From: Candidatus Yanofskybacteria bacterium CG10_big_fil_rev_8_21_14_0_10_36_16
GTDB taxonomy: Bacteria > Patescibacteriota > Minisyncoccia > 2-02-FULL-40-12 > IGHO2-01-FULL-4-A
Assembly: GCA_002794035.1 (NCBI GenBank)
Contig: PCXQ01000004.1
Span: forward strand, 187,064 to 251,063
Direction of reading: 5' to 3'
DNA length: 64,000 nucleotides
A model generated the notes under the pieces. It made no database searches, was not told the DNA's origin, and saw only the letters and a program-made list of their open reading frames with translations. The position numbers were made by a program, and so were the translations under genes. Positions 10,025 to 61,420 of this stretch are shown piece by piece. The stretch's first letter is position 1, and each line of letters starts with the position of its first letter.

Positions 10025-10040
10025 AATTTAAATTAGATAA

Positions 10041-11429: not shown

Positions 11430-11445
11430 ATTACTTTATATTAAA

Positions 11446-13188: not shown

Positions 13189-13216
13189 ATTAATTATTTT
13201 AATTATTAATTAATTA

Positions 13217-13537: not shown

Positions 13538-13549
13538 GGTAATGTTAGG

Positions 13550-14542: not shown

Positions 14543-14563
14543 TTTATTGTTTATGAATTGTTA

Positions 14564-15133
14564 TTAATTATTTTTAAAAATATTTTCTGCTATTTCTTCT
14601 TTCATTTTTTCGCTAGCGCTTACTACCAATGCCTTATATGTCATATCAACCTCAATCCTATCCGTCCTGTAAACAAACCCGCCTGAAACACCCAAGATTT
14701 CATTGGAAATTTTGTCGTTTCGACCGCTCTTGCCAAGGGCTTTCTCGAGTATATTCTTGTTGTTGCCTGCACCAAACAATATACCTTCCGTTTTGGGCAG
14801 TTTCTTTAATGCTTCAGCCAAAAGCCCAACCTGTTTTTCTTCACTCATTTCTGACAAAAGATTCTCTGCTTTGTTAAAGACATCATTTAAGACTTTAACT
14901 TTTTTATCAAGAATCTTTGCAGAACCTTTTAGCTTAAAATTAAATAAAGCACTTTGTGTTTTACTTATAAGTTCCCTTCGTTTCTTTTCCAAAAGTTCTT
15001 TTCTGCGATTGCCTGTTTTGATATCCCACTCCGAAACTAGCGCTTCATATTTTTTAGCGTACTCTCCTTTTATTTCATCCGCCTTTGCCTCGGCGTCAGA
15101 TTTAATAGATTTTAATATATCAGATAAAGCCAA
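14564..15133 (-). CDS. atpE: A/V-type ATPase subunit E (peripheral stalk)
   Basis: 189-aa charged coiled-coil N-terminus (MALSDILKSIKSDAEAKADEIK...) plus globular C-terminus. Operon position fits. Confidence 0.75.
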   Translation of the reverse strand: MALSDILKSIKSDAEAKADEIKGEYAKKYEALVSEWDIKTGNRRKELLEKKRRELISKTQSALFNFKLKGSAKILDKKVKVLNDVFNKAENLLSEMSEEKQVGLLAEALKKLPKTEGILFGAGNNKNILEKALGKSGRNDKISNEILGVSGGFVYRTDRIEVDMTYKALVVSASEKMKEEIAENIFKNN

Positions 15134-15226
15134 GTTTTAATTAAACATTTAACCATTTCGACATTTAAGCAAGCTGAATTTATGCCAATTGTTTTTATGT
15201 TTAGATGTTTAGATATTTATGTAATA

Positions 15227-15700
15227 CTAAACTGTTATACCAAATATCAAAAGAATGCTGATAAGCAACCCTAACACAGCGTATGTCTCTACCATAGCAG
15301 AAAGAATAATTGCCTTACCCATGGCCTTTGGCTGTGTTGCCACTATTTTCATGCCTGAAGCAGATACCTTTCCTTGGTACCAACCTGAAGAAAAACCAGC
15401 GATAGCAATGGGCAAAGATGCGAAAAGCAAGCTCAAGCCATTACTCATTGTCAGTGCGACAATCTCTCCTCCAAACAGCCCGATTTTCTGTAATATTAAA
15501 AATGCTACCAAAAAACCGTAAATACCCTGTGTGGCTGGAAGGGCCTCAAGGACCAAAACCTTCCCGAACTTATCGGGGTCTTCTGATATAACGCCAGCGC
15601 CGGCCTGACCAGCAGCACTAACGCCGAGAACCGAACCAGCACCAGCAAAACCAACTGCCAATCCTGCTCCCAAAATAGCCAATGAAATTCCTAATTCCAT
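15227..15700 (-). CDS. atpK: A/V-type ATPase proteolipid subunit K (c-ring)
   Basis: 157-aa double-hairpin proteolipid with Gly/Ala-rich TM helices (GAGLAVGFAGAGSVLGVSAAGQAG). Confidence 0.85.
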   Translation of the reverse strand: MELGISLAILGAGLAVGFAGAGSVLGVSAAGQAGAGVISEDPDKFGKVLVLEALPATQGIYGFLVAFLILQKIGLFGGEIVALTMSNGLSLLFASLPIAIAGFSSGWYQGKVSASGMKIVATQPKAMGKAIILSAMVETYAVLGLLISILLIFGITV

Positions 15701-15807
15701 AATTAATTAAACTTACAATATACAACCTACAAATCACAAAGAGTCTTGAAATTTGTGAGTTGAAATTTGTGAGTTATTTTTGTTAAATTTTATTTTTAAA
15801 AACTAAA

Positions 15808-29350: not shown

Positions 29351-30874
29351 ATGCCAAAAAAATATACCCCGGGAAAACCCGGTGAATTTCCATTTACACG
29401 AGGAACCCGATCTCTAGGGTATCAAGATCCTAAGAAAAAGTTTTGGACAATGAGAATGTTCTCTGGTTTTGGATCTGCTGAAAACACTAATGAGCGTTTT
29501 AAAAAACTATTATCCGAAGGTGAAACTGGATTGTCAACCGCATTTGATATGCCCACCCTTTTAGGACTTGATTCTGATGATCCTAGGGCCAAATGGGATA
29601 TCGGAAAGGGAGGGGTCGCAGTTTGTACTCTCGAGGATATGGAAGTCCTTTTCAAAGACATACCATTAGACAAAGTTACAACCTCTATGACAATAAATGC
29701 TCCTGCTGCAGTTTTATTGGCAATGTATATTGCTGTTGCAGAAAAAAAAGGGATTTCAAAGAATCAAATTGGAGGAACAATCCAAAATGACATTTTAAAA
29801 GAATATATTGCTCAAAAAGAGTGGATTTTTCCCCCATTACCTTCAGTGCGTTTAATAGTTGATACGATTGAATATTGTTCTGAATTTGTACCACGCTGGA
29901 ACACTGTTTCAATCTCCGGCTACCACATTCGAGAGGCAGGAGCTACAGCAGTACAGGAATTAGCTTTTACTTTGGCAGATGGCATAGCCTATGTCGAAGC
30001 ATGTATAAAAAGAGGCTTGCGAATTGATGATTTTGCGTCCAGACTTTCTTTCTTTTTTGATTTTCACAATAATTTTTTTGAAGAAATAGCAAAATTAAGA
30101 GCCGCCCGATATTTATGGGCACACATTATTAAAGAAAGATTCGGCGCACAAAACACGAGATCGATGATGTGTAGAATGCACGTCCAAACTGCAGGCTGCA
30201 CACTAACTCACCAACAACCCTTGAACAACATCGTCAGAGTAGCAATACAAGCTCTGGGTGCGGTTTTGGGGAATACCCAATCACTACACACAAATTCTTA
30301 TGATGAAGAATTGTGCCTACCCTCCGAGGAAGCTGTCATAATTGCCTTGCGTACTCAGCAAATAATTGCCCACGAAACAGGCATTGCAAATGTTCCTGAT
30401 CCCCTTGGTGGCTCTCCCTACATAGAAGGTCTCACCAAAAAATTGATAGAAGACGCACGAGATTATATAAAAAAAATAGATGACATGGGAGGCATGATAA
30501 AAGCTATTGAAAAAGGTTTTCCTCAAAAAGAGATACGAGACTCGGCTTGGCTTGATAAAAAGTTTCAAGACGATAAAACCAAAATCGTAGTTGGTGCAAA
30601 TAAATTTAATGACACATCAGAAGAAGAAAGTTGTGGAAATTTTGAAATTGATCCTCAAGCTCAAACACGTCAACTAGAAAGACTTAAAGCTTTCAAGGCA
30701 AGAAAAAATTCTAAATTAGTTAAAGAATCTTTATTAGAAATAAAAATTGCGGCTATGGAAAATAAAAACCTGATGCCCTATTTAATTGAAGCTGTAAAAA
30801 ACAACGTTACTCTTGGTGAAATTTGCACCAGTTTAAAAAAGGTATTTGGAGAGTATCAGGAGGTGGCAAATTGA
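29351..30874 (+). CDS. B12-dependent acyl-CoA mutase large subunit (methylmalonyl-/isobutyryl-CoA mutase substrate-binding TIM barrel), lacking a B12 domain
   Basis: FPFTRGTRSLGYQ...FWTMRMFSGFGSAENTNERFKKLLSEGETGLSTAFDMPT matches the MCM/ICM N-terminal barrel. Confidence 0.85.
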   Translation: MPKKYTPGKPGEFPFTRGTRSLGYQDPKKKFWTMRMFSGFGSAENTNERFKKLLSEGETGLSTAFDMPTLLGLDSDDPRAKWDIGKGGVAVCTLEDMEVLFKDIPLDKVTTSMTINAPAAVLLAMYIAVAEKKGISKNQIGGTIQNDILKEYIAQKEWIFPPLPSVRLIVDTIEYCSEFVPRWNTVSISGYHIREAGATAVQELAFTLADGIAYVEACIKRGLRIDDFASRLSFFFDFHNNFFEEIAKLRAARYLWAHIIKERFGAQNTRSMMCRMHVQTAGCTLTHQQPLNNIVRVAIQALGAVLGNTQSLHTNSYDEELCLPSEEAVIIALRTQQIIAHETGIANVPDPLGGSPYIEGLTKKLIEDARDYIKKIDDMGGMIKAIEKGFPQKEIRDSAWLDKKFQDDKTKIVVGANKFNDTSEEESCGNFEIDPQAQTRQLERLKAFKARKNSKLVKESLLEIKIAAMENKNLMPYLIEAVKNNVTLGEICTSLKKVFGEYQEVAN

Positions 30875-31980
30875 CTACAAAAATATTGCTGGTAAAGGGT
30901 GGACTAGATGGTCATGATCGTGGAATTCAAATTGTGACTAAGGCTCTGAGAGATTCTGGTTTTGATGTAATTTATGGTGGCCTTTATTGTTCTCCCGAAG
31001 AAATAGCAGCAATAACCATTCAAGAAAATGTCGATGTGGTTGGAATTTCCACACACAGCGGAAATCATCTGGGTATTTTTTCAGAAACCATAAAAATTTT
31101 AAAAGAAAAAACAAATACCCACTGGCCCATTATTGGCGGAGGAATTATTCCAGCAAACGACATCCCCGCTCTTGAGAAAATGGGTGTAGATAAAATTTAT
31201 TTACCAAGTACTAACATTACAGAAATTGTTGAATTCATAAAGGGGCTGAAGTTAATGAAAAGAAAAAAAGAATCACAACAAAAAACAATTGAAAGAATTT
31301 TAAAAGGAGAAGTTTTTGCGGCAGCGTCTTTAATGTCATTAGTTGAACAAGGCGACAATAACGCAAAGAAAATAATTTCTAAATTACCAGATTTATCCCC
31401 CCAAACTATTGTAGTTGGCATAACTGGCTTCGGCGGCGTTGGAAAAAGTACTTTAATTAACAAACTTATCGAACATTTCAGAAAGGACAGAAAAACTGTT
31501 GGGGTTATAGCATGTGACCCAGTGAGTGTTTCCCGTGGTGCAGTTATGGGAGACAGAATAAGAATGAAAGATCACGCCCAAGATGAGGGTGTTTTTATAA
31601 GAAGTATTGTTCAACGCCAAAATTTCAAAGGAGTAACACCGACAACCCCATCAATTATAAAAATTTTGGGAGCAATGAAAAAAGATATAATAATTGTCGA
31701 AACTGCTGGAGCCGGACAGGAAAATTCAGGATTTAAAGACCTCGTAAAAGTTTTAGTATGGGTTTCTGTTCCCGGACTTGGTGATAAAATCCAAATGCTT
31801 AAGGGTGGAGGTATTGAAACTGCCAATATTATAGTTGTAAACCAATCGGATAAAGCAGCCTCGTATTTGACATTTCAAGATCTTAAAGAACATTTTGAAA
31901 ACACCAAAAAAATATGCAAAACCAATTCTCTGACAGGAGAAGGCATTTCCGAATTAGTCAAAGCAATAAAAGTGGTTTAA
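30871..31980 (+). CDS. Cobalamin-binding domain fused to MeaB/ArgK-type G-protein chaperone (acyl-CoA mutase small subunit-MeaB fusion)
   Basis: KILLVKGGLDGHDRG (DxHxxG B12 motif) then P-loop GITGFGGVGKST. Probable TTG start at 30871 with AGGAGGTG 5 nt upstream, overlapping the upstream TGA (TTGA). Confidence 0.8.
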   Translation: MTTKILLVKGGLDGHDRGIQIVTKALRDSGFDVIYGGLYCSPEEIAAITIQENVDVVGISTHSGNHLGIFSETIKILKEKTNTHWPIIGGGIIPANDIPALEKMGVDKIYLPSTNITEIVEFIKGLKLMKRKKESQQKTIERILKGEVFAAASLMSLVEQGDNNAKKIISKLPDLSPQTIVVGITGFGGVGKSTLINKLIEHFRKDRKTVGVIACDPVSVSRGAVMGDRIRMKDHAQDEGVFIRSIVQRQNFKGVTPTTPSIIKILGAMKKDIIIVETAGAGQENSGFKDLVKVLVWVSVPGLGDKIQMLKGGGIETANIIVVNQSDKAASYLTFQDLKEHFENTKKICKTNSLTGEGISELVKAIKVV

Positions 31981-35167: not shown

Positions 35168-37351
35168 TTAAAACTCTAAAAGCTTACTTAAACCAGAAAC
35201 AATTTTACCAACCGTAGGGAGATAAAGCTCTTCAAGCTCTGGTGAAAATGGTACTGGCGTGTCTTCAGCTGCAATCAATACAACTGGTGCATCCAAATCC
35301 TCAAAAGACTCTTCGCTAATTCTACTCACTATCGTTTGGCCAAAACAACCAGTTTTAGATGCTTCGCATGTTACCAAAACTCTGCTAGTTTTTTTGATTG
35401 ACTCAGAAATGCATTCAAAATCAACAGGAATTAAAGATCTCAAATCTATAATCTCTATTGTCTTGCCTGTTTCGGCTTCCACTCGCTTAACCGCTTCAAT
35501 AGCTCTAAACATCTGAGAGCCATAACTAATAACAGTTGCATCTACCCCCTCTTTTAAAATTCTAGCCCTACCAAAAGGAACAGTATAATCGCCTTCAGGA
35601 ACTGGGGTGTTGAGCTCGGGAGGAATCATGCCGGATTCCGGATTTAAATTATAAATCCCCTTATATTCTACAAAAATTACAGGACTGTCATCTAATATAG
35701 CAGAATTTAGCAAACCCCTTGCATCAAATGATGTTATGGGAGCAACAATCTTAAAACCCGGCGTAGAGGCAAACCATGATTCTGGGTGAGCACTATGAAA
35801 AGAAGATGAGCCCTTGGTCCAGCCAGAAGGCATCCGGAAAACAATTGGCATTGGACCGAAACCTCTAGCAATCTGATTGGCTACAAAATTTACCATAATC
35901 ATAAAAGCAGATGATGAAAAATCAGCAAATTCAAATTCAACAATAGGTCTGAGATTTAAATAAGTAGATCCCACAGCCATTCCAACTATTCCTGATTCAG
36001 CTAAGGGCATATCAATTACACGCCTTTGATAAATTTTGTTAATTTTATAAAAATCTTCTGGCCATTCAATATTATCAAAAATACGAGAAAGTCCTTCTGT
36101 AACCTTAAATGCACCACCACTTAATCCAATGTCTTCTCCTAGAAGAATCACATTGGGGTCTTTTGTCATTCTTGTTATTAATGCTCCCCTGATTGCTTCA
36201 CGGTATGTAATTAAATCTCCATTGTTTGGAGGTAAAACAATTTCATTTTCGTGAACAATCTCAGGCATAAAAATAGACCTCCTGATATCTTTCACTTTTG
36301 GTCCAGAGCATTTTTCAGATCGCGCCAAATCTTCTTTAACAGTTTGTTCTGCCCTTTCTTCAATTTGATCAAGAGTCTTATCATCAACTTGGAATTCATC
36401 GGTAAGACGTTTTAACAAAGCATCAACAGGATCCTTTTTTCTCCACTTCTCTAGCATTTCTTCTGGCACATATTTGTGACTATCAGCAAGTGAATGTCCC
36501 GCCATTCTCATGGTTTTTGCAACAATAATAGAGATGATTTTTTCATTTCTTGCACGATCAAGAGCCCTAGAAACAGTGTTATAAACCATACCAACATTCG
36601 TACCATCAATTAAAAATCCTTCCACATTTCTGCCATAACCCAAAGCCCTGAGAGCTAAAGTTGGAGACCTAAATTCAAAAAAGTTAGGAGTACCAAATGC
36701 CCATTGATTGTTTTCGATTACAACAACCATAGGCAACTCTTTTACAGCTGCAATATTCAATGCTTCATGCACAATACCAATACTAGTTGCTCCATCTCCT
36801 AAAAAAGCCAGTACAGCATCCTCGGAATTGTGAAAATTTATTCCAAAAGCACAACCTGAAGCAATTGGCAACATTATGCCCAAGTGGCTAACAAAAGGAA
36901 TTATTCTTTTTTCAAAATCTCCAAAATGGAGGCTAGCATCCCAACCATGAGTAGGGCCATCTTTTTTTGCACAGATCTGGCACATTATTTCGTAAGGTGT
37001 TAGTCCGCGGACCAAATGAGTGCCTAGGTCCCGAATGGCTGGTGCAAACCAATCTTCTTTTTTGAGTGCATAACCAGCACCAACAGCAGTTGCTTCATTT
37101 CCTAAACTTGAAAGATGCTTGCCCAATGCCTTACCTTTTTTGATCAAAAGTTTAATTTCTCTCTCTGTCTTTCTGGTAAGATGCATATAGTAATACAATT
37201 CTTTATACAGTTCCCTTAAATCACATTGAGATTCAGTAACAACTTGAGATTCTATACCCTCAGCAGATATACGATAAACAACATCGTTTAAATCTTTAAA
37301 AGGATCAATCTTCTCTAATTTTCTATACATTTCTGCAAAATATCTGGGCAT
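35168..37351 (-). CDS. 2-oxoacid dehydrogenase E1 component, fused alpha-beta subunits (TPP-dependent)
   Basis: N-terminal half carries the E1-alpha TPP motif (LGDGATSIGIVHEALNIAAV...ENNQWAFGT). C-terminal half is transketolase-like E1-beta. 727 aa. Confidence 0.8.
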   Translation of the reverse strand: MPRYFAEMYRKLEKIDPFKDLNDVVYRISAEGIESQVVTESQCDLRELYKELYYYMHLTRKTEREIKLLIKKGKALGKHLSSLGNEATAVGAGYALKKEDWFAPAIRDLGTHLVRGLTPYEIMCQICAKKDGPTHGWDASLHFGDFEKRIIPFVSHLGIMLPIASGCAFGINFHNSEDAVLAFLGDGATSIGIVHEALNIAAVKELPMVVVIENNQWAFGTPNFFEFRSPTLALRALGYGRNVEGFLIDGTNVGMVYNTVSRALDRARNEKIISIIVAKTMRMAGHSLADSHKYVPEEMLEKWRKKDPVDALLKRLTDEFQVDDKTLDQIEERAEQTVKEDLARSEKCSGPKVKDIRRSIFMPEIVHENEIVLPPNNGDLITYREAIRGALITRMTKDPNVILLGEDIGLSGGAFKVTEGLSRIFDNIEWPEDFYKINKIYQRRVIDMPLAESGIVGMAVGSTYLNLRPIVEFEFADFSSSAFMIMVNFVANQIARGFGPMPIVFRMPSGWTKGSSSFHSAHPESWFASTPGFKIVAPITSFDARGLLNSAILDDSPVIFVEYKGIYNLNPESGMIPPELNTPVPEGDYTVPFGRARILKEGVDATVISYGSQMFRAIEAVKRVEAETGKTIEIIDLRSLIPVDFECISESIKKTSRVLVTCEASKTGCFGQTIVSRISEESFEDLDAPVVLIAAEDTPVPFSPELEELYLPTVGKIVSGLSKLLEF

Positions 37352-50849: not shown

Positions 50850-51464
50850 TTATTTTCTAAGATATTTTTTAATGGGCAATAAAAAAATAGTGCCCAATAC
50901 AGAAAAGAAAACCATAGAAATAATCAAAAAATTAAAACCTATTGATATTGCAATGAATCCACCTATAGCAGCTAGGGTAGCACTGGATAAATCAGTAAGT
51001 GTAAAATACACTCCCCATTCTGTACCCTCCTTGTGATTATCAATATGTCTGGTAAAAATTGCCACATAAGAAGGAAAGGTCATGGCTGTAAAAAACCCCA
51101 AAACAAACTGTATAATATAAAGCTGCCATGGCAAATTTATAACAAGATACAAAAGAGGAATTACCGACATCACAACACTTCCCCAAAATAAGAACATAAA
51201 ATCATCCTTTTCTCCTTTGATTTTATCAATAAATGCAGCAAGGGGTATTTGCAAGGTACTTTTGGTAAATAAATATACAGCAACTGAAACACCGACAACA
51301 GCAGCGTTACCCCCAATAATAAAATCTTCTATAAAAATAGCAAAAACTGGAGAAAAAAGACCCGCCGCTCCAACAAGTATCACATCGGATACAATAAGCA
51401 ACCTAATAACAAAATTTATATCTTTTAAAAAGTAATGTTTTAACGCTAATATTTTTTTGTCCAT
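50850..51464 (-). CDS. Hypothetical 6-TM membrane protein (MFS-half-like)
   Basis: 204 aa, ~6 TM. Confidence 0.35.
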   Translation of the reverse strand: MDKKILALKHYFLKDINFVIRLLIVSDVILVGAAGLFSPVFAIFIEDFIIGGNAAVVGVSVAVYLFTKSTLQIPLAAFIDKIKGEKDDFMFLFWGSVVMSVIPLLYLVINLPWQLYIIQFVLGFFTAMTFPSYVAIFTRHIDNHKEGTEWGVYFTLTDLSSATLAAIGGFIAISIGFNFLIISMVFFSVLGTIFLLPIKKYLRK

Positions 51465-52855
51465 TATTTTAGTTTATCTGAAAAGTAAGATGAAAGCTCA
51501 TCTATTTTTATTCTTTCCTGCTTCGCAGTATCTCTATCGCGCACAGTAACTGTACCGTCTTCCAAACTATCGAAATCAACAGTAACACACCACGGCGTAC
51601 CTATTTCATCCTGAGCATAATAACGCTTACCTACATTTCCCCTATCATCCCAGACAGTTGTAAATTCAGAACTCAAATTATCAAAAATTTCCTGAGCCTT
51701 TTTAACAAGTTCGGGTTTATTTTTCAACAATGGAAAGACAGCGACTTTATATGGTGCAAGCTTAGGATGTAATTTCAAAACAACCCTCTTGTCATTGCCT
51801 TCTCCCTCTTCGTAATAAAACTCAAGCATAACCATGAGCATCAAACGAGTAAGGCCAAAAGTAGGCTCTATAACATGGGGGGTAAATTTATTACCCGATT
51901 CGGGATCCGTGTACTCAAGATCAACCCCAGAGTGTTTTGAATGATTTTTAAGATCAAAATCAGTCCTGTAAGCGAGTCCGAATAATTCTTTCCATCCTAT
52001 CGGTGTCTTATATTCAATATCCGCAGTGCGGTTACTATAATGCGATAATTCTTCTTTTTCGTGCTCTCTTACCCTCAGGTTGTCTTTGTTGAAACCGATT
52101 TCTTTCAACCAATCCTGCTGTTGGGCAAGCCAATATTCAAACCATTTTTGCCAATCATTTTTTTCAATGAAGTATTCAAATTCCATGAGATCAAATTCTA
52201 AAGTACGAAAAGTAAAATTACCCGGAGTAATTTCATTGCGAAAAACCTTACCCACAGAAGCAATACCGAACGGCAGTCTTATACGAGTTGTATCAAGAAC
52301 ATTTTTGAAGTTAACAAACATTGATTGAGCAACTTCCCCACGCAAATAAACAACACTTTTATCCCCCTCAACCGAACCAATAGAGGTTTGGAAAAGCAAA
52401 TTAAACTTTCGTGCCTTGGTAAACTCCCCTTTTGCTCCGCATTTTGGACAAGCAATTTTATGAGTTTCAATAATCTCTGACAATTCATCTGCAGATTTGC
52501 CTTCCACCTTCTGATCTGGCAAGGCATTTTCAATTAAATGATCAGCGCGGTGCCTGGTTTTGCATTTTTTGCAATCAACCATTGCATCACTAAAGCTCGA
52601 AACATGTCCTGATGCTTCCCAAACTTTTGGGTTCATCAAAATAGCAGCATCTAAACCCACCATATCTCGTCGTGACTGAACAAACCTCTTCCACCACCAA
52701 TCCCGCAAATTATTTTTTAATTCCACGCCAAGCGGGCCATAGTCCCAAGAGTTGGCCAAACCGCCATAAATCTCAGAGCCGGGATACACAAAACCCCGCC
52801 TTTTAGCCAGTGAGGTTATTGTATCTATTAAATTGTTATTCTTTTCTTTGCTCAA
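51464..52855 (-). CDS. glyQS: Glycyl-tRNA synthetase (dimeric alpha2 type)
   Basis: N-terminus LAKRRGFVYPGSEIYGGLANSWDYGPLG is the signature of alpha2-type GlyRS. Class II motifs present. Confidence 0.9.
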   Translation of the reverse strand: MSKEKNNNLIDTITSLAKRRGFVYPGSEIYGGLANSWDYGPLGVELKNNLRDWWWKRFVQSRRDMVGLDAAILMNPKVWEASGHVSSFSDAMVDCKKCKTRHRADHLIENALPDQKVEGKSADELSEIIETHKIACPKCGAKGEFTKARKFNLLFQTSIGSVEGDKSVVYLRGEVAQSMFVNFKNVLDTTRIRLPFGIASVGKVFRNEITPGNFTFRTLEFDLMEFEYFIEKNDWQKWFEYWLAQQQDWLKEIGFNKDNLRVREHEKEELSHYSNRTADIEYKTPIGWKELFGLAYRTDFDLKNHSKHSGVDLEYTDPESGNKFTPHVIEPTFGLTRLMLMVMLEFYYEEGEGNDKRVVLKLHPKLAPYKVAVFPLLKNKPELVKKAQEIFDNLSSEFTTVWDDRGNVGKRYYAQDEIGTPWCVTVDFDSLEDGTVTVRDRDTAKQERIKIDELSSYFSDKLK

Positions 52856-52872
52856 TATATAAAAGATTAAAT

Positions 52873-54702
52873 CTAGTTTTCTTGAACAGTCCCACCTGCT
52901 TTATCTACTGCCCTTACAGTATTAATCAATGCCTCCCTTCTGGTAATTTCCTGACTTGTTATTGTGTCGCGCCCTGTAAATATCGTTTCTTTTAACAAAT
53001 CGGCTGGCGAATTAATCTGGTTAATTGATGGTACTATTGATATCTGGAAATATGCCTCATAAGGAGGAAATGAAGTACCCACACCCCCCGGAACAGAGCC
53101 AATGTCCCAGAAAATAGAATTGCTATTTGAATCATATTGAGGCAGAGTACCTGTTACATTTGAGCGAGTATTCCCAACCCACTCAACTCCGGGCAATAAT
53201 TGTCCTGTAATTTCCGCGGGTGCTATCAAATTAACAGGATTGGCCACTGACCACCTTATTGTAAGAGTTGTTTTCTCGTCAACTTTAGGAGGCCAAGGAC
53301 CTGAAGAACCCCACTCAAAATCATCAACATAAAGTTCTTGTCTAAATGAAAGATTGGTTGCAATTCTTGTCAGAAGCTCGTCTTCTGCGATCAAACGATC
53401 AACGCCAAGATCGGGAGGAACATTAGTTGTCTCAATTCTAGGAGTAATTTTAACCAATGAATTTTGACTTCCTATTACTCCTCCTGGAAATTCTTCTTTA
53501 AGTCTTACCGTGAATTTAACAGATCCGGTCTGATTTGCTCTTAACACACCCAGCTGAGGAACAACTGAGGCATTCCAATAAACAGTATTTAATCTGCTGT
53601 CAAAAAAACCATCTGACTCAACTGATGTTAGATCAAACATCTCGCCATCAAGTTTTGCAGACAATCCCACGCCCAAAAGATCTCGGGTGGTATTGTTTTT
53701 AAATTTAATCTCATAACGCAAGGTTTCTCTTAATCGAGCAACATATTCTTCAACACCATTGACGGTAGCCGAAATAGACAAAAAAGGACTGGCAATAGCT
53801 GTCGAAGCTGTCACCCTCTCGAAATCAATATAGGTTTCCCCTTCTGGCGTGCTTACCTTTCTTCTCACTGTTGCTGATATTGTTTTGGAATCTCTTTCAT
53901 CTCCAATCAAAATACCTGAGATGCTAATACGAGAACCCTCCCCCGCCCTCAGTCTTGGGATAAGCCAAACGTTTTCTCCTTTGTTATAAATTGGCTTAGT
54001 GGTAAACACACGAAAAGTATCCGGCAATTCAATCTCAATCAAGACATCTTCAAAATCTTCCTCTGTTTCGTTTCTATAATCTAATATATAGGAAACATCC
54101 TGACCGTTAACTGCAGTTGGCGGAGCAACCAAGGTCAAACTAATAGGCAAAGAAGTAATAGTGGTAGTGGTGGAAGCTTCTTTTGCTATTGTGGTAACCA
54201 AATTTCCCGGCTGGAATGACAACACAGCCTTAACCTGCTTAATATTACCCCTGTCACCAACTATATAGGCAGTGAACTCTCTTTCTCCCTGCTCACCAGC
54301 TCCGATCTTCCCTATATCAATAACCTTGTTGTTAAGATCAATAATTTCTTCATCAACAATAACTATAGAATCGGCGGGATAAGTAAAAGTAAGTTTGGCA
54401 TCTATCAAATCTACCCTATTGTTGTTTTCATAAGAAACTTTATAAGTTACGAATTCTCCCCCTTTAACTTCACTTGGACCATCAATACCAACATTGACCT
54501 TGCTTTCACTAAAAGAACTCCTCCCAAGGAAGAAAAACAGTACACCAACTGCAACAATCAAAACAGCACCCGCTATCACATGCTTTATGCCAAACTTAAA
54601 ACCCCGTTTCTTTTCTTCTGAATTGGGTACTATTATAGGCTTAGGAATTGGAGTTACATCAAACCTTGGTTCTGAAATCTGATCTGAGCTTGGATTATCC
54701 AT
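52873..54702 (-). CDS. Large membrane-anchored surface protein with repeated beta-rich domains
   Basis: N-terminal TM, then ~550 aa of Thr/Val/Ser-rich beta-strand-like repeats. Confidence 0.4.
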   Translation of the reverse strand: MDNPSSDQISEPRFDVTPIPKPIIVPNSEEKKRGFKFGIKHVIAGAVLIVAVGVLFFFLGRSSFSESKVNVGIDGPSEVKGGEFVTYKVSYENNNRVDLIDAKLTFTYPADSIVIVDEEIIDLNNKVIDIGKIGAGEQGEREFTAYIVGDRGNIKQVKAVLSFQPGNLVTTIAKEASTTTTITSLPISLTLVAPPTAVNGQDVSYILDYRNETEEDFEDVLIEIELPDTFRVFTTKPIYNKGENVWLIPRLRAGEGSRISISGILIGDERDSKTISATVRRKVSTPEGETYIDFERVTASTAIASPFLSISATVNGVEEYVARLRETLRYEIKFKNNTTRDLLGVGLSAKLDGEMFDLTSVESDGFFDSRLNTVYWNASVVPQLGVLRANQTGSVKFTVRLKEEFPGGVIGSQNSLVKITPRIETTNVPPDLGVDRLIAEDELLTRIATNLSFRQELYVDDFEWGSSGPWPPKVDEKTTLTIRWSVANPVNLIAPAEITGQLLPGVEWVGNTRSNVTGTLPQYDSNSNSIFWDIGSVPGGVGTSFPPYEAYFQISIVPSINQINSPADLLKETIFTGRDTITSQEITRREALINTVRAVDKAGGTVQEN

Positions 54703-54766: not shown

Positions 54767-55312
54767 TCATCTTACCACATTTTGTATTAGTTGTAATGAC
54801 CCAAATCTTCTCTCAACAGCCTCTTCTATGCTCAATCCCTTACCATAACCGAGCACATTAACTGCTTCCGCGTGTATTTTTTTAAACTCTTTTTGCCAAA
54901 ATATATCTTTTTTATTGGCAAAAAGGTTAATATCATTAAGTTTGTTACTTAAAAAGTCCCATAAACTGCCGTCTCTCTCTCCCTCCATTACAACCTTGTC
55001 CATTAATTCAACAATAAAAAATGAAACTGCAAGCGCCTTAATGTCTGACTTTATCTTGCTGAAAGCATTTAAACAATAAGCGCTAGTTATTATAGGATGT
55101 CCATTGCCTTGAACCAAATTAAAATCAACCAAATTCAAAATATCCAGATGGCTTGCCTGTTTTGATGTCGAACGAAGAACACTCTTGGCTTGATAAACTT
55201 GTTTTCCATCTTCCTGAGTATAACAAATCACCAACTCATCATATTCACGAATAGGTATTTTTTTAATAATAAATGCACGCATAGTATTTATTATAGAATA
55301 AATATCTTTCAA
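54767..55312 (-). CDS. recO: RecO-like DNA repair protein (short form, no obvious zinc finger)
   Basis: N-terminal OB-fold pattern AFIIKKIPIREYDELVICYTQEDGK..AKSVLRS and C-terminal ...NVLGYG resemble RecO. Confidence 0.4.
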   Translation of the reverse strand: MKDIYSIINTMRAFIIKKIPIREYDELVICYTQEDGKQVYQAKSVLRSTSKQASHLDILNLVDFNLVQGNGHPIITSAYCLNAFSKIKSDIKALAVSFFIVELMDKVVMEGERDGSLWDFLSNKLNDINLFANKKDIFWQKEFKKIHAEAVNVLGYGKGLSIEEAVERRFGSLQLIQNVVR

Positions 55313-55388: not shown

Positions 55389-58300
55389 TTATTTTTTAAT
55401 TCCAATCCAAACCTTTTGGTTTTCTATTTCAAATTCTTTCTCAACATCAAAAGCCTCTTCTGTCTTTTTACCCTGTTCAAGATGACTCAACACGGATGCT
55501 TCTTTTATTTCGTCTGAAAAAACACTGAAGGTGTTAACAACGGAATCACTTTCTGAATACCACACAACTCTAACCTTTTGCTCATAGTTATACCCTGCCT
55601 CCTTCCTCATGTCCTGAAAATATCTAATTATATCTCGAGCAATACCTTCGTTTTTCAATTCAGTAGTTACATTGGTGTCTAAAATCACATCATCTTCTTG
55701 AGTAGTGTTATAAATTACCTTTTTAACATTAAGCTCCTCCTTTATCAGCCCTTCGAGTTCTGAGCCAAATGGCATAAGTTTTTTGTTCATTTTAACTGAG
55801 ACACTCATTAATGGCTGACGAACCTTGATTTCTTTTTCCTTTCTTTGTGCCAAACCAAGAGCAACAACGTCTCTAAGGGCAACCATTTTTTCCTCAAGAT
55901 CATCACTTTCAAACTTTTTATGGTGGTGAGGCCAATCTTCAAGATGTACTGATTCCACATTGTCAGATATTTTTTTATAAATATGGTCTGCTATAAATGG
56001 GGTAAATGGCGCCAGCAATTTACACACCTCTATTAAAAGATGTCTGAAAAATCTTAAGTTTTCTTCAAGGATTACCTTGTCTTCAGGTTTTTGAAATCTG
56101 CCTCTAGATCTTCTCAACCACCACTTGGACAAATCATTAACAACAAAATCTTCAATTGCCCTCGCAGATGCGGTGTAATTATAGTCATCCAAATCATTAC
56201 CCACTTTTGCCTTAAGTCTGTTTAATCGAGACAGCACCCATTCGTCAAGAATATTTTGAGGAGTATTTGAAGAAGTTTTTTCTTTAAAACCGCCGTATAA
56301 TTCCAAGAATCTTAGAGTGTTAACGAGTGTAGTTAAAAAGCCATTCATGTTTTTCTTAACATCATCAAGAGAAAACAACTTTGTTTCACCGGGATTGTTT
56401 ACCGTATAGAAATACCAACGTCCCGCATCTGCTCCAAACTGCTCAATAATGTCATGGGGATCAACTGCGTTACCAAGCGACTTGGACATTTTTTTGCCCT
56501 TGTCATCAAGGACATGGGAATAGGACAATACATTTTTGTATGGAAAACCCTTATCTAACAAACTCGATACTGCAAGCAATGTATAGAACCAGCCCCTTGT
56601 TTGATCAATCCCCTCTGCAATAAAATCGGCCGGAAAATTATCCTCAAAAACTTTTTTGTTTTCAAAAGGATAGTGCCACTGAGCATAAGGCATGCTCCCC
56701 GAATCAAACCAAACATCTACAACTTCCGGAACTCTTTTCATTTGCTCTTTGCATTTAGGACATTTTATAGACACTTCGTCTACATAAGGCCTATGCAAAT
56801 CTATAGATCCCCCTTCGTTGTAGGGATAATTTTTAAACTCAAATTTTCTTAATTCACCCCTGTCTGGATAATTCTTCTTTCTGATGTCTAACATTTCTTC
56901 ATCGGACAAGTTATCAAGCGCGCTACTCAATAACCAAATTGGGTCGCCGTGGCTAACCAAAAGAAATTTCTTGCCTTCATGTTTATCGTCTAACTCTTTT
57001 ACAACTAAAAACATCCTGGCTTTTGCCTCTCTCCATGTCTCACCATCGCCATAACGCATATCTAAGGTTCTATTTATGTTTTCTGGTATGCAAGCATAGT
57101 GATTTTTACCCTCGCAAATACTGCCGTGATCAAGTTCTTTTAATCTATCGTCAGTATGTACCTGTTTTCCTAATACACTAGCAACAATGTGTGCGGAATG
57201 CTGAGTTCTCTTAAACGGAGAGGCATATATATAATCTACACCTCCTTCTTTTTTAAGTTTTTTAGCAACTTCTTCTACTTCTTTTATTCCTTCGGGTAAT
57301 AAATCATAACTATCATTCTCAAGACGTGAAGCTATTATGTCCTTGCCATCAATATTGTTTTTCTCGCTCGTACCATGACGTAAAATATAAAAAGTATTCT
57401 TTTCACGATATCTGTTTTTATCAAGATCTTCCAAAGAACTAATTACTTTATGTTCCTCGCATTTACCACATTCCCAAACAGGCAAAGGTGTTCCCCAAAA
57501 TCTCTCTCTAGAAAAAGCCCAGTCCTTTACATCACGCAAAAACTCACCAAATCTACCCTCTTTCAAATTTTCGGGAACCCAATTAATTTTATTATTGTTC
57601 TTTAAAAGATTATCCCTAATCTTGGACATTGCTACAAACCATGAATCCTTGGCATAGTAAATCAAAGGACTCTTGCACCTCCAACAGAAAGGATATGAGT
57701 GTTCATAATTCTTCACATCATACAGGAATCCTTTTTTATCTAAATAATTTATTATTTCTTTATCGGCATCTTTTACATATTTTCCTTCAAAACCCTTAAC
57801 ATCCTCTGTAAAAAGACCTTGCTCGTTAACAGTGTGGTGCATAGGCAATCCGATATTTTTACCAAGCTGATAATCATCCTCTCCGTACATTACTGCTGTA
57901 TGTACAACGCCTGTACCTTCTTGAGTTGTGACAAAGTCAGCTCCATAAACCTTGTATGACTTTTCCGATTCTAGAGATTTAATGTCAAAAAGAGGTTCAT
58001 ATTCAATGCCTACGAGATCTTTGCCTGTAAATTCAGCAACCACATCAAGAGGTTTATCTTTTTTGACATTAACAACAGCATCTTCAGCAACAATTAAATA
58101 CTCAGGGCCATTTTTAACCAAAAGATATTTAATCTTCTCCCCCACTGCCAATGCAACGTTGCCGGGCAATGTCCATGGAGTAGTAGTCCATGCCAATATA
58201 TAACTGTTGTCCTTTAAATTATGGCTATCAGGATTTTTAATTTTAAATTTTACAAAAACTGATGGCTCTGAAACATCCTTATACCCTTGAGCCACTTCGT

Positions 58301-58862
58301 GACTGGACAATGCCGTACCACACCTCGGACACCACGGTAAAATCTTATGCCCTTTATACAAAAGGCCTTTTTTGTTTATCTGACCCATCACCCACCAAAG
58401 AGACTCCATATATTTCCAGTCATAAGTAACATAAGGGTCGTCTAAATCAATCCAGAAACCAATTCTATCAGTAAATTTTTCCCAAAGATCTTTATACTTC
58501 CATACGCTCTTTTTAGCCATTGCGTTAAATTTGCCAACACCATATTTTTCAACTTCGGTTTTATCTTTTAGACCTAGCTCCTTTTCAACCTCTATTTCAA
58601 CAGGTAGCCCATGCGTATCCCAACCGCCCTTTCTTAAAGCATAAAATCCCCGCATTGTTTTGTAGCGGTTAAAAAGATCTTTTACTACCCGGCCAAAAAA
58701 GTGATGCATGCCAGGCTTACCATTTGCAGTGGGAGGACCTTCAAAAAATACAAACTTCTTCCCCTTTTTTCTGTTATTAAGGGAACGTTCGAAAATCTTT
58801 CTTTCTTTCCAGAATTTAAGAATTTTTTCTTCAATTTTTGGGAAAATGTTTTCTTTAATCAT
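55389..58862 (-). CDS. ileS: Isoleucyl-tRNA synthetase (type 2) carrying an inserted histidine-phosphatase-superfamily domain
   Basis: PPTANGKPGMHH (HIGH-like), YPFCWRCKSP, WFDSGSMPY, KMSKSLGN. Between WGTPLPVWECGKCEE and DLHRPYVDEV lies a ~165-aa module with RHG (FYILRHGTSEKN) and SHG (LLVSHGDP) motifs. Confidence 0.85.
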   Translation of the reverse strand: MIKENIFPKIEEKILKFWKERKIFERSLNNRKKGKKFVFFEGPPTANGKPGMHHFFGRVVKDLFNRYKTMRGFYALRKGGWDTHGLPVEIEVEKELGLKDKTEVEKYGVGKFNAMAKKSVWKYKDLWEKFTDRIGFWIDLDDPYVTYDWKYMESLWWVMGQINKKGLLYKGHKILPWCPRCGTALSSHEVAQGYKDVSEPSVFVKFKIKNPDSHNLKDNSYILAWTTTPWTLPGNVALAVGEKIKYLLVKNGPEYLIVAEDAVVNVKKDKPLDVVAEFTGKDLVGIEYEPLFDIKSLESEKSYKVYGADFVTTQEGTGVVHTAVMYGEDDYQLGKNIGLPMHHTVNEQGLFTEDVKGFEGKYVKDADKEIINYLDKKGFLYDVKNYEHSYPFCWRCKSPLIYYAKDSWFVAMSKIRDNLLKNNNKINWVPENLKEGRFGEFLRDVKDWAFSRERFWGTPLPVWECGKCEEHKVISSLEDLDKNRYREKNTFYILRHGTSEKNNIDGKDIIASRLENDSYDLLPEGIKEVEEVAKKLKKEGGVDYIYASPFKRTQHSAHIVASVLGKQVHTDDRLKELDHGSICEGKNHYACIPENINRTLDMRYGDGETWREAKARMFLVVKELDDKHEGKKFLLVSHGDPIWLLSSALDNLSDEEMLDIRKKNYPDRGELRKFEFKNYPYNEGGSIDLHRPYVDEVSIKCPKCKEQMKRVPEVVDVWFDSGSMPYAQWHYPFENKKVFEDNFPADFIAEGIDQTRGWFYTLLAVSSLLDKGFPYKNVLSYSHVLDDKGKKMSKSLGNAVDPHDIIEQFGADAGRWYFYTVNNPGETKLFSLDDVKKNMNGFLTTLVNTLRFLELYGGFKEKTSSNTPQNILDEWVLSRLNRLKAKVGNDLDDYNYTASARAIEDFVVNDLSKWWLRRSRGRFQKPEDKVILEENLRFFRHLLIEVCKLLAPFTPFIADHIYKKISDNVESVHLEDWPHHHKKFESDDLEEKMVALRDVVALGLAQRKEKEIKVRQPLMSVSVKMNKKLMPFGSELEGLIKEELNVKKVIYNTTQEDDVILDTNVTTELKNEGIARDIIRYFQDMRKEAGYNYEQKVRVVWYSESDSVVNTFSVFSDEIKEASVLSHLEQGKKTEEAFDVEKEFEIENQKVWIGIKK

Positions 58863-58914: not shown

Positions 58915-58940
58915 ATAAAACCCCGTTGAATACGGGGCTA
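58915..58940 (-). terminator. Intrinsic terminator (CCCCGT-ATTCAA-CGGGG + U-run on the minus strand)
   Basis: Hairpin immediately 3' of the stop of the 58938..59591 gene. Confidence 0.6.
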
Positions 58941-59591
58941 TTTTTCTATTTCCCTATCTTGAGATACTTCACTTAATATTCGTTCTGCCTCTTCTACCGC
59001 TAACCAACTATAAATTTTGTTTTCAACTTTAAAAACCAACCTAACCAACAAAACAACAACCATAAACGAAAAGGATATCTGACTGGCCCAACCCCAAAAT
59101 AAATCAGGGAATATATTACTATGCATTGCATTGTGAAATATTTCCAACTGAGACAGAATGTAAAAATCCATTCCTAAGATTCTTTTTAGTACCATAAAAA
59201 CATCAGGCAAAATGTTAAAAAATACACCCAATGAAGCAAGAAAAAATGGACTGGCTAATTTAAGATTATCAGCAACTTCAATTTTTGAAACATTAACAGA
59301 CACAACGACCCTCAAAAAATGCATCAAGGGTTCTCTAAAAACAAAAAGTATTATACACGAACCAATCATCATATCAATCAAGAGATAAACTGAGCTTAAA
59401 AATAAAAATTCTGATTTAATAGCATAATCTTTGTGCGGAATTGCATCCAACAAAAAATGACAGAAAAAAGAAACTGAACAAACAACAAAAACCATAAGCA
59501 ACTTTTTGTTCATCCATTTCCTGCCAATAAATATTTTCTTGACCAAAACTGCTATCAAAGAACCAGCCAACATATGGGGCGATGCAACCAA
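58938..59591 (-). CDS. Hypothetical multi-TM membrane protein
   Basis: 217 aa, ~6 TM. Confidence 0.35.
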   Translation of the reverse strand: MVASPHMLAGSLIAVLVKKIFIGRKWMNKKLLMVFVVCSVSFFCHFLLDAIPHKDYAIKSEFLFLSSVYLLIDMMIGSCIILFVFREPLMHFLRVVVSVNVSKIEVADNLKLASPFFLASLGVFFNILPDVFMVLKRILGMDFYILSQLEIFHNAMHSNIFPDLFWGWASQISFSFMVVVLLVRLVFKVENKIYSWLAVEEAERILSEVSQDREIEK

Positions 59592-59716: not shown

Positions 59717-61420
59717 CTACATTTCCTCAGGAGCTTCTATACCCAAAAGCCCAAGACCATTTTTGATAATTTGAGATACTGCCATTATTAAGCCCAACCG
59801 CAAAGCACGCTTTGTCTCATCAGGCTCATTTAAAACAGGGGCAGCTTCGTAAAAAGAGTTAAACTTTGAAGCTAAGTTGTACAAATATTCACAAAGTTGA
59901 TTTGGATAATGGTTTTTAGCGACATCAGACACAACTTCAGGAAATCTCACCAAATAACGCAAAAGCGGTTTTTCCTCATCACCCACAGAATCAACAAAAT
60001 CAGAATCATCGCTTAACTCATTAGATGAATTATCTGCTTTGCGAAGAATACTTTTTATACGAGCATGGGTATACTGCAAATACGGACCAGTATTGCCTTC
60101 AAAATTCAAAACCTTATCCCACTCAAAAACAATATCGCTGTGTCTGTTGTGAGATAAATCAAAATATTTAACTGCTCCAATCGCAACCTTCTTTGCTACT
60201 TGTTCTTTGTTTTCTAAATCCTGATTCTTTTCCTCTATAATTTTAAGAGCTAATTCATTTGCCTTATCCATAAGCACCTCAGGGCTGACATCTGTCCCCT
60301 TTCTTGTACTCATGGCTCCTTCTGCTAATTTTAATATACCGTAACTTATATGTTCCCCCTCGCCATTGCTTTTAATATGTCCCATCAAATCAAGAACCTT
60401 AAACAGCTGTCTGAAAATATGTTCCTGCCTATTGTCTACAACAAACAACTGGCGCGAGAAGCCCTGCTTTTTCTTAAAAATAAATCCGGCAATATCCCGC
60501 AAAAGATACATAGTAGCACCATCTGATTTAACGAGTAAGGCAACACCTAGCCCATATTCCTCAAGATCAACAATCTTTGCTCCTTCTGATTCCTTAAGTA
60601 ATCCCTTTTCTTCAAGCTCATCAAGGACTGCCGGCATCTTGTCTTCATAAAAACTTTCCGGCCAGTTGTGATCAGATTTTCTTATATTTAATAATTCATA
60701 AGTTTTCTCAAATTCCTGCCAGCTTAATTTTGCAAATTTTTCCCAAAGTTTTTTATTTTCCTCATCACCCTTTTCTAATGCAGCAAACTCTGCCTTTCCT
60801 TTCTCTCTAATATCAGGGTCATGTTTAGCTTTTTCATTTATATCAATATAAAGCTTATTTAATTCCTCTATTGGATTTTCTTCTACAACCTTTTCATCAC
60901 CAAAATTTTTATAAGCATACAGTAAAAGCCCAAACTGAGTTCCCCAATCACCTATGTGACTGTCTGATTCAATGTTATAACCGGAAAATTTTAATATTCG
61001 ATAAAGAGCATCACCTATGATGGCTGTTCGCAAATGGCCAAGGTGAATAGGCTTTGCAATATTAGGCTGGAAATATTCTATTAATATTTTATCCTTTTTG
61101 TCATCTCCCCTGCCGAATTCTTCCTTTTGTTTTAAAATCTCTTTGGCGTTTTTTAACAGTACATTTTTGGAATAATAAAAATTTATAAATCCAGGTGCAG
61201 CAAATTCAATTTTTGAAAAAGCTTTTTTAATATCACCGTCATCCTTTAATTTTTTTATGATTAGTTCTGCTTCGTCTTTTGGATTTGAATTATTTTGTTT
61301 AGCAACAACAAAAGAAACGTTACATGCTAAATCACCCCTGTCTTCCAGTGGATATGATATGTCAAAATTACTAATATTCGTAATTTTTTCTATTATTTCA
61401 TGCAGTGTGGCTTTGGTCAT
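59717..61420 (-). CDS. argS: Arginyl-tRNA synthetase
   Basis: HIGH region NIAKPIHLGHLRTAIIGDAL, ArgRS N-terminal add-1 domain, DALR anticodon-binding C-terminus. Confidence 0.9.
   Translation of the reverse strand: MTKATLHEIIEKITNISNFDISYPLEDRGDLACNVSFVVAKQNNSNPKDEAELIIKKLKDDGDIKKAFSKIEFAAPGFINFYYSKNVLLKNAKEILKQKEEFGRGDDKKDKILIEYFQPNIAKPIHLGHLRTAIIGDALYRILKFSGYNIESDSHIGDWGTQFGLLLYAYKNFGDEKVVEENPIEELNKLYIDINEKAKHDPDIREKGKAEFAALEKGDEENKKLWEKFAKLSWQEFEKTYELLNIRKSDHNWPESFYEDKMPAVLDELEEKGLLKESEGAKIVDLEEYGLGVALLVKSDGATMYLLRDIAGFIFKKKQGFSRQLFVVDNRQEHIFRQLFKVLDLMGHIKSNGEGEHISYGILKLAEGAMSTRKGTDVSPEVLMDKANELALKIIEEKNQDLENKEQVAKKVAIGAVKYFDLSHNRHSDIVFEWDKVLNFEGNTGPYLQYTHARIKSILRKADNSSNELSDDSDFVDSVGDEEKPLLRYLVRFPEVVSDVAKNHYPNQLCEYLYNLASKFNSFYEAAPVLNEPDETKRALRLGLIMAVSQIIKNGLGLLGIEAPEEM

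Follow-up and report, generated by a model that had tools for sequence, protein, structure and literature searches.

The window analysed here is a stretch of 64,000 nucleotides (GC content about 37%) from Candidatus Yanofskybacteria bacterium CG10_big_fil_rev_8_21_14_0_10_36_16, an ultra-small member of the Patescibacteriota (Candidate Phyla Radiation, CPR), and corresponds to positions 187,064 to 251,063 of contig PCXQ01000004.1 (assembly GCA_002794035.1). On its reverse strand lies ileS, the gene for isoleucyl-tRNA synthetase (IleRS), as a single unbroken open reading frame (ORF) of 1157 codons, flanked by argS on the one side and by recO on the other. An initial annotation, made from the letters of the DNA, had noticed a histidine-phosphatase domain within this synthetase. 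In the following, we describe the borders, the predicted active site and the distribution of this domain as well as its free-standing relatives, and discuss what its association with tRNA charging may mean.

A histidine-phosphatase domain within IleRS

The ileS product matches the Pfam families PF00133, PF08264 and PF19302 and, in its middle, the histidine-phosphatase family His_Phos_1 (PF00300). The search against the latter, which the initial annotation had proposed as a check, gave a significant match (E = 1.4e-26), and the interval originally assigned to the domain (56915..57401) reaches E = 1e-26 by itself. The borders of the insertion were determined by searching the protein with phmmer against all PDB chains, with the type-2 IleRS (IleRS2) of P. 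megaterium (8c8w/8c8u) as the reference. Residues 10–483 align to residues 13–477 of the solved enzyme and residues 685–1070 to residues 484–866, with E = 1e-265 outside the insert. Because the flanks align on both sides, the extra piece comprises residues 484–684, that is, 201 residues at a site where the solved IleRS2 has about six. The nearest insert-less IleRSs of the CPR give identical borders, with 6–17 residues between the motifs '...GS.EEL' and '(D)LHRP(Y/W)(V/I)D'. An additional domain had thus been recognized correctly, but its size is about 200 residues rather than the proposed 165 or so.

Its location likewise needs to be refined. The domain does lie upstream of the DVWFDSG/KMSKS half of the synthetase, as had been claimed, but it is found downstream of and outside connective peptide 1 (CP1): 13 residues upstream of the DVWFDSG strand, it occupies the loop of the second zinc knuckle. 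More precisely, the phosphatase sits between CGKC (465–468) and CPKC (701–704), the two halves of this knuckle. Since the insert falls between two conserved CxxC halves, the zinc knuckle is retained, with the phosphatase hanging from its loop.

In principle, such an architecture might be the artefact of a frameshift, a chimeric assembly or a mis-called gene that joins two genes. The gene is indeed split by frameshifts at four related loci (L014, L020, L036 and L048), but these splits lie elsewhere in the gene and look like errors of metagenome-assembled genomes. By contrast, the reading frame in the window is continuous, IleRS sequence is present on both flanks of the insert, and the same architecture recurs in 120 protein clusters and, across many studies, in 79 of the 80 species genomes examined. 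We therefore regard an artefact as next to impossible. With the profile match, the alignment to solved IleRSs, the insert-less relatives and hundreds of independent assemblies, the proposal of an in-frame histidine-phosphatase domain that is absent from canonical IleRS holds.

The host synthetase

Apart from the insert, the host is a normal-looking type-2 IleRS. The ORF scores 897 bits against the NCBIfam model for ileS (TIGR00392; cut-off 621), its product is 100% identical to an NCBI protein labelled isoleucine--tRNA ligase (P0001), and it carries PF19302, the C-terminal domain of type 2, with IleRS2 structures as the best PDB matches. An AlphaFold2 (AF2) model of the full-length protein has a mean predicted local distance difference test (pLDDT) score of 92.2 and a predicted template-modelling (pTM) score of 0.85. 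Conservation was measured on an alignment of 117 insert-bearing orthologue clusters, which are 53–65% identical overall. The class I signature has the swapped form GMHH in the window; 91 of the 117 orthologues show G/AXHH at this position and 26 the canonical HXGH. A GXHH signature has been described and shown to be active in IleRS2, where the swap confers hyper-resistance to mupirocin (PMC10485003). The CP1 editing-motif residues TTTPWT and GTGxVH are invariant. The GXHH-type signature, the KMSKS motif, both zinc knuckles and a CP1 editing site that is intact make the synthetase look functional. Two specialized IleRS families were considered and rejected: the scores for the mupirocin-resistance enzymes MupA and MupB are 851 and 835 bits (cut-off 1900), and that for the IleRS-with-GNAT family NF040702 is 348 bits (cut-off 1999).

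Active site, fold and subfamily of the insert

All elements of a branch-1 catalytic core are present in the inserted domain: the RHG motif with R495 and the nucleophile H496, the second phosphate-binding arginine R552, an acidic proton donor, E576, and the second catalytic histidine H638. The RHG and SHG signatures had been named in the initial annotation and are confirmed by translation. The mid-domain histidine that it proposed in the stretch KRTQHSAH is not among the conserved residues: H555 and H558 are variable, mostly glutamate or glutamine in the orthologues. The conserved residue of this stretch is R552, and the acid catalyst E576 had been overlooked.

These five residues are invariant in the 117 orthologue clusters, as are D517, S548 and R616; the position of E576 is taken by aspartate in a few standalone relatives. 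Mean identity amounts to about 47% in the insert, compared to 58.5% in the host. Because the catalytic pentad is invariant in a domain that is otherwise so divergent, the active site seems to be under purifying selection. This is difficult to reconcile with a dead structural module, whose fold is retained as a spacer or as a tRNA-binding surface. An IleRS paralogue in which RHG is changed to RAG (P0241) might be cited as an example of such decay, although this protein is degenerate as a whole, being also devoid of HIGH, KMSKS and CP1. We thus consider a dead module very improbable; the histidine-phosphatase active site is complete as far as the alignment tells, and the enzyme is apparently active.

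The predicted structure agrees with this assignment. The AF2 model of the domain alone (pLDDT 93.5, pTM 0.91) adopts the α/β/α fold of the PGAM type, and in Foldseek searches against the PDB its nearest structures are short members of the phosphatase type, namely the phosphoserine phosphatase of H. thermophilus (iPSP1, 4ij5/4ij6), PhoE (1h2e), CobC (6e4b/6nru), Rv2419c (4pz9) and a phosphatase of the riboflavin pathway (9mmh). For these phosphatases, E-values are about 1e-12, with a probability of 1.00 for PhoE, iPSP1 and CobC, TM-scores of 0.71–0.81, root-mean-square deviations (rmsd) of 2.2–3.0 Å and sequence identities of 21–24%. The cofactor-dependent phosphoglycerate mutases (dPGMs), by contrast, superpose at an rmsd of more than 6 Å. 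In dPGMs such as E. coli GpmA, the catalytic glutamate is followed by R-H-Y-G and lies about 95 residues away from the second histidine; in the insert, L-D-H-G follows E576, and the spacing to H638 is 62 residues.

Likewise, the curated family models do not place the domain in a characterized group. Orthology to dPGMs was rejected by score (72.7 versus 225 bits for dPGM_arch, 16.5 versus 81.7 for TIGR01258 and 44–49 versus 261 for GpmB), and the same holds for SixA (TIGR00249; 26–31 bits, cut-off 74.5), CobC (53–54 bits, cut-off 162.9) and PspA (49–54 bits, cut-off 350). The standalone relatives, too, remain under all curated NCBIfam equivalog cut-offs. The RNase H/acid phosphatase model PRK07238 is the second-best NCBIfam match of the insert and the best one of the standalone protein P0126, far below its cut-off in either case. 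We conclude from the sequences and the structural models that the insert is most probably a bona fide branch-1 histidine phosphatase of a subfamily of its own, more phosphatase-like than mutase-like. This subfamily is specific to Patescibacteria and is marked by two features that its inserted and standalone forms have in common, the motif VSHGDP[IL]W and a C-terminal extension of the form 'NLSxEEL...GELRK'.

One feature is restricted to the inserted form: a pair of cysteines in the cap region, C583 and C591, is kept in 91 and 97 of the 117 inserted domains and is absent from standalone forms. The two may form a disulfide or a metal site, or act as a redox switch, peculiar to this form.

Distribution

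The combination of PF00133 and PF00300 is found in all 120 best homologue clusters, which are 51–100% identical to the query. In a search of the insert alone against 1.84 billion representative proteins, 2436 matches had E<1e-3, and for 266 of these the value was below 1e-10. The top 150 of them are mostly IleRSs or IleRS fragments that have the domain at the same place, and the remainder are free-standing proteins of about 190 residues with 29–41% identity. We further scanned GTDB, with one genome per species, for the pattern [IL][VI]SHGDP[LI]W, which was derived from an alignment of six sequences, and found 310 species genomes with a locus encoding a relative. Among the best 80 of these 310 loci, the domain resides within IleRS at the same site in 79 and is encoded by a separate gene in one, which answers the question of the initial annotation whether related lineages share the insert.

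Lineages with the insert include Yanofsky-, Ryan-, Nealson-, Niyogi-, Colwell-, Harrison-, Azam- and Uhrbacteria, Spechtbacterales and 'Paceibacterota', and among the insert-bearing genomes is a complete one of 1.17 Mb (CP129476.1). The public relatives bear the automatic names 'class I tRNA ligase family protein' or 'isoleucine--tRNA ligase'. The GC content of the insert (0.363) equals that of the rest of ileS (0.368), and so does the GC content at third codon positions; the arrangement thus appears to be old, and a recent acquisition of the insert is unsupported.

Standalone relatives and gene order

In related Paceibacteria, as seen for five independent homologues (P0126, P0142, P0144, P0145 and L089), the phosphatase is encoded by a separate gene of about 190 codons directly upstream of an insert-less ileS (938–976 residues). 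The junctions between the two genes measure +1, +6 and -10 nucleotides in P0126, P0142 and P0145, respectively, the three cases with annotated gene calls. Wherever the contig reaches far enough, the phosphatase gene is in turn directly preceded by argS; for P0126, argS is not found within loci L001/L002. Downstream of this type of ileS follow recO, a gene for a DUF11/DUF7619 protein and one for a class II aminoacyl-tRNA synthetase (aaRS). The gene order in the window is the same (Table 1), except that the phosphatase is located inside ileS and that an ORF for a hydrophobic protein of 217 residues fills the gap between argS and ileS. Most of the 80 GTDB loci also share the order recO–DUF11–class II aaRS. 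Where the insert is present (79 loci), no further phosphatase copy is found within 7 kb.

Phosphatase and ileS are a split-versus-fused pair of the 'Rosetta stone' kind. We infer the direction of the change: likely, an operon partner of ileS was internalised and its separate copy lost. The insert-less IleRSs beside the standalone gene are of two subtypes, one with ITANNPMGVHH...PWLDAG and the other with PPFANGLPGIHH...DCWFDSG (loci L001, L003 and L089 versus L007), so that the adjacency of phosphatase and ileS seems to have outlived the divergence or replacement of the synthetase. In a neighbour-joining tree of 159 domain sequences, standalone and inserted forms are intermingled, and the long tips are connected by very short internal branches; the tree was not used to count insertion events.

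Regarding the neighbouring genes, the recO product of the window consists of 181 residues and has the RecO_N domain alone, compared to proteins of 240–260 residues that include the C-terminal domain in several relatives. An Rfam scan of the window returned two tRNAs alone, with no RNA element near ileS. Elsewhere in the window, the genes for subunits D, B, A, C/AC39 and I form an operon that encodes an ATPase of the V/A type instead of an F-type ATP synthase. In another region, a B12-binding/MeaB fusion protein comes after a methylmalonyl-CoA-mutase-like large subunit (676 bits), and a fused E1 α/β subunit of a 2-oxoacid dehydrogenase is encoded nearby. The GC skew of the mutase region is opposite to that of its surroundings. 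This looks like a B12-dependent catabolism of branched-chain compounds or propionate, something one would not expect of a reduced CPR genome.

Table 1. Positions of ileS, of the segments and motifs of its product, and of further genes in the window. Residue numbers refer to the 1157-residue IleRS.
Feature	Position	Strand	Evidence or remark
ileS (type-2 IleRS with embedded histidine phosphatase)	55389..58862	-	single unbroken ORF, 1157 aa + stop
IleRS residues 1–483 (first Rossmann half, CP1 editing domain, up to first zinc-knuckle half)	57414..58862	-	aligns to 8c8w 13–477
Class I signature, swapped form GMHH, residues 51–54	58701..58712	-	translation
First CxxC of zinc knuckle, CGKC, residues 465–468	57459..57470	-	C465 invariant, C468 in 108/117
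Inserted domain, residues 484–684 (branch-1 histidine phosphatase, C-terminal helix/strand extension, linkers)	56811..57413	-	alignment to solved IleRS2 and insert-less CPR IleRSs
His_Phos_1 (PF00300) match, residues 492–662	56877..57389	-	93.8 bits (gathering score 21.7), profile positions 2–171 of 194
RHG motif: R495 and nucleophile H496	57372..57380	-	translation; invariant 117/117
R552, second phosphate-binding Arg (SPFKRT)	57207..57209	-	invariant 117/117
E576, putative general acid	57135..57137	-	invariant in 117/117 inserted forms
Cap-region cysteine pair C583...C591 (CEGKNHYAC)	57090..57116	-	conserved in 91/117 and 97/117
SHG motif with H638, second catalytic His, in VSHGDP(I/L)W	56946..56954	-	H638 invariant
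IleRS residues 685–1157 (DVWFDSG strand, KMSKS, anticodon-binding and type-2 C-terminal domains)	55389..56810	-	aligns to 8c8w 484–866; PF08264, PF19302
Second CxxC of zinc knuckle, CPKC, residues 701–704	56751..56762	-	C701, C704 invariant
KMSKS	56478..56492	-	K791, K794 invariant; M792, S793, S795 nearly so
argS (ArgRS)	59717..61420	-	PF00750, PF05746, PF03485
ORF of 217 aa, hydrophobic, in the argS–ileS gap	58938..59591	-	no Pfam match; homologues at same position in L028, L036
recO	54767..55312	-	Pfam; 181 aa, TTG start, RecO_N domain alone
DUF11 protein	52873..54702	-	Pfam
Class II aaRS	51464..52855	-	Pfam
V/A-type ATPase operon	9404..17760	-	
Methylmalonyl-CoA-mutase-like large subunit, then B12-binding/MeaB fusion	29351..31980	+	
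Fused E1 α/β 2-oxoacid dehydrogenase	35168..37351	-	

Other fusions of the subfamily

The zinc-knuckle loop is not the only place at which members of this subfamily have entered a synthetase. In other Patescibacteria IleRSs, the domain follows D(C/V)WFESGSMPYA or separates the KMSKS half from the anticodon-binding domain, which makes three IleRS insertion sites in all. Some IleRSs (P0143, P0211 and P0242) contain two copies; these double-domain proteins of 1379–1419 residues have them at different sites. Yet another IleRS (P0250; 1382 residues) combines the phosphatase with a NUDIX domain in CP1. The idea that some IleRSs with the domain at about residue 260 (proteins of 915–980 residues) lack CP1 had to be abandoned: mapping identified them as N-terminally truncated fragments that start inside CP1, and only the degenerate paralogue P0241 is truly devoid of it.

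The same subfamily is also found in valyl-tRNA synthetase (ValRS), in the homologous loop between ISRQxWFGHQIPVWY and DTLDTWFSSG; more than 60 such clusters belong to Falkow-, Komeili- and Peregrinibacteria. No named lineage appears both in our list for the ValRS insert and in that for the IleRS insert. Finally, the phosphatase is fused to the C-terminus of an ArgRS (P0138) and, in four clusters, to the t6A enzyme TsaC/Sua5. All fusion partners seen are thus tRNA-related enzymes that make an acyl-adenylate and pyrophosphate. Taken together, these insertions and fusions span much of the CPR.

Proposed function

These observations demonstrate a conserved physical or operonic linkage of the phosphatase subfamily to class Ia synthetases, and in the IleRS described here, a synthetase and a histidine-phosphatase active site, both intact as judged from their conserved residues, would make up a bifunctional polypeptide. 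The pattern points to a phosphate-removing step linked to tRNA charging. In our estimation, the chances are about even that the domain, by virtue of tethering and stoichiometry, removes phosphate from something connected with this process.

The chemistry can be anticipated because every member of the family works in the same way: R495, R552 and H638 would bind a terminal phosphate for the attack by H496, E576 would protonate the leaving group, and the phosphohistidine would then be hydrolysed. The insertion would thereby hold a phosphomonoesterase in a 1:1 ratio with, and beside, a class Ia synthetase. Since the domain occupies three different places in other IleRSs, we would expect its benefit to come from tethering rather than from precise channelling. 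The substrate may be a phosphorylated nucleotide or an RNA end tied to tRNA charging, and two candidates come to mind: a blocking 2'/3'-(pyro)phosphate on the acceptor end of the tRNA and a nucleotide by-product of the adenylate chemistry. The initial annotation had thought of a nucleotide or a phosphorylated signalling molecule as the substrate, or of a moonlighting role, and these ideas may still apply. With regard to the former, toxSAS enzymes pyrophosphorylate tRNA at its 3' CCA end and thereby block aminoacylation (PMC11559606), and the IleRS with both a NUDIX and a histidine-phosphatase domain (P0250) would suit a two-step removal from such blocked ends. In its most specific form, this proposal sees in the phosphatase a third catalytic site of Patescibacteria class Ia synthetases, accompanied in some proteins by a NUDIX domain, which heals 2'/3'-(pyro)phosphate-blocked tRNA ends, such as those left by toxSAS-type or RNase toxins, before charging, or which destroys a phosphorylated nucleotide inhibitor or by-product. 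We put this forward tentatively and, as worded, think it rather unlikely to be right.

Several observations weigh against a role in tRNA charging. Among solved structures, the closest are metabolic phosphatases that act on small molecules, at just 21–24% identity, and between E576 and H638 the domain has a cap subdomain like those of small-molecule enzymes. Nor is it markedly basic: the isoelectric points scatter widely around medians of 6.8 for inserted and 8.8 for standalone forms. The three IleRS insertion sites have no obvious common geometry and hence give no sign of channelling. Moreover, TsaC/Sua5 of these bacteria is a fusion hub in its own right (P0263 and the P0395–P0511 set), mostly with an MGMT-type DNA_binding_1 domain, but also with TruB, 2H-CPDase, NUDIX, GNAT and purine DNA glycosylase (AAG) domains, and a few ValRSs carry an α/β (serine) hydrolase instead of the phosphatase. 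Evidently, fusion is cheap in these streamlined genomes and, taken by itself, says little about a shared pathway.

The main alternative is that the domain is a hitch-hiker, a housekeeping phosphatase (for example of the phosphoserine, sugar-phosphate or ribazole type, or a short mutase) that came to lie inside IleRS through adjacency and genome streamlining and gains co-expression only. The weak NCBIfam matches and the nearest structures (PspA, PhoE, CobC, GpgP and archaeal dPGM) are in line with such an origin, the promiscuous fusions of the CPR TsaC, the hydrolase inserts in ValRS and the variable insertion sites in IleRS can be read in the same way, and the C-terminal fusion to ArgRS resembles a plain read-through of adjoining genes. 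However, a hitch-hiker would not be expected to have tRNA-related, adenylate-forming enzymes as its only fusion partners, or to stay beside ileS even when the IleRS is of a different subtype. The use of a homologous loop in two paralogous synthetases and the repeated internal insertions are likewise unlike simple read-through, no curated family cut-off is reached, and the L-D-H-G sequence after the catalytic glutamate departs from the R-H-Y-G of dPGMs. On these grounds, we consider the hitch-hiker possible but somewhat doubtful.

A further alternative is that the domain acts on a protein, removing phosphate from histidine, serine, threonine or tyrosine residues of IleRS or a partner, for instance to reverse the effect of a toxin kinase or to reset a signalling pathway. 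The histidine-phosphatase family does include protein phosphatases, such as SixA, PGAM5 and Sts-1, and the insert weakly matches the SixA model, although it misses the cut-off by a wide margin. In mycobacterial MutT1, a NUDIX domain is combined with an RHG domain that dephosphorylates sensor kinases (PMC12407098), and the same two domains occur together in the P0250 IleRS. On the other hand, a cap insertion between the catalytic glutamate and the second histidine is typical of small-molecule enzymes, with which the insert aligns best, and no kinase is conserved in the neighbourhood, neither in the window nor at the GTDB loci. A protein substrate therefore appears improbable to us, and a phosphate-removing activity connected with tRNA charging is the reading that we prefer.

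Relation to known systems

The host resembles the IleRS2 of P. megaterium (8c8u/8c8w) and the IleRS of T. thermophilus (1ile) in CP1, the zinc knuckles, KMSKS and the PF19302 domain, and differs in the 201-residue phosphatase that replaces the few residues of the solved IleRS2. In turn, PhoE (1h2e), iPSP1 (4ij5), CobC (6e4b) and the GpgP Rv2419c (4pz9) are like the insert in fold, catalytic residues and size (about 200 residues), but they are free-standing, whereas the insert forms part of a synthetase and is set apart by its C-terminal extension and the VSHGDP[IL]W motif. RHG phosphatases covalently fused to an enzyme that works on nucleic acids or nucleotides are known from Actinobacteria, namely the Rv2228c-type RNase H/acid phosphatase (PRK07238) and mycobacterial MutT1, whose NUDIX + RHG architecture recalls the P0250 IleRS. 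These are, however, end-to-end fusions, whereas the domain described here is nested within the catalytic domain of an aaRS. A putative precedent for a separate catalytic domain nested in IleRS is the family NF040702 ('ileS_w_GNAT'), with a GNAT acetyltransferase in place of a phosphatase. The classic hydrolytic insertion in the class Ia Rossmann fold is CP1 itself, which is an aminoacyl-ester hydrolase rather than a phosphatase.

Full-text literature searches, whose coverage is incomplete, returned no description of a histidine phosphatase inside IleRS, in line with the initial annotation, whose author was not aware of one either. A 2026 preprint on the domain architectures of 96,219 GTDB IleRSs mentions neither the phosphatase nor Patescibacteria, and in the papers that we consulted on Parcubacteria we found no usable account of a missing pyrophosphatase or phosphoglycerate mutase. 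The architecture thus appears to be widespread, conserved and undescribed, while both component families are already known.

Biological implications

The aaRSs are among the most conserved enzymes, and to our knowledge, catalytic domains other than editing domains are rarely nested in the cores of bacterial aaRSs. At a practical level, VSHGDP[IL]W inside IleRS provides a simple sequence marker for a large group of Paceibacteria. Should the domain turn out to be a hitch-hiker, it would still represent a clear case of a natural domain insertion in a zinc-knuckle loop, and it would advise caution in reading fusions as functional links when genomes are streamlined. The pattern of fusion and adjacency argues, however, for a phosphate-removing activity that is needed together with tRNA charging in organisms with tiny genomes. 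If its substrate were a tRNA end or a nucleotide of the synthetase reaction, it would constitute a new accessory step of translation as well as a new way of resisting toxins that target tRNA, and if it indeed served as a third catalytic site of these synthetases, Patescibacteria would possess a new quality-control or repair step that is physically coupled to aminoacylation.

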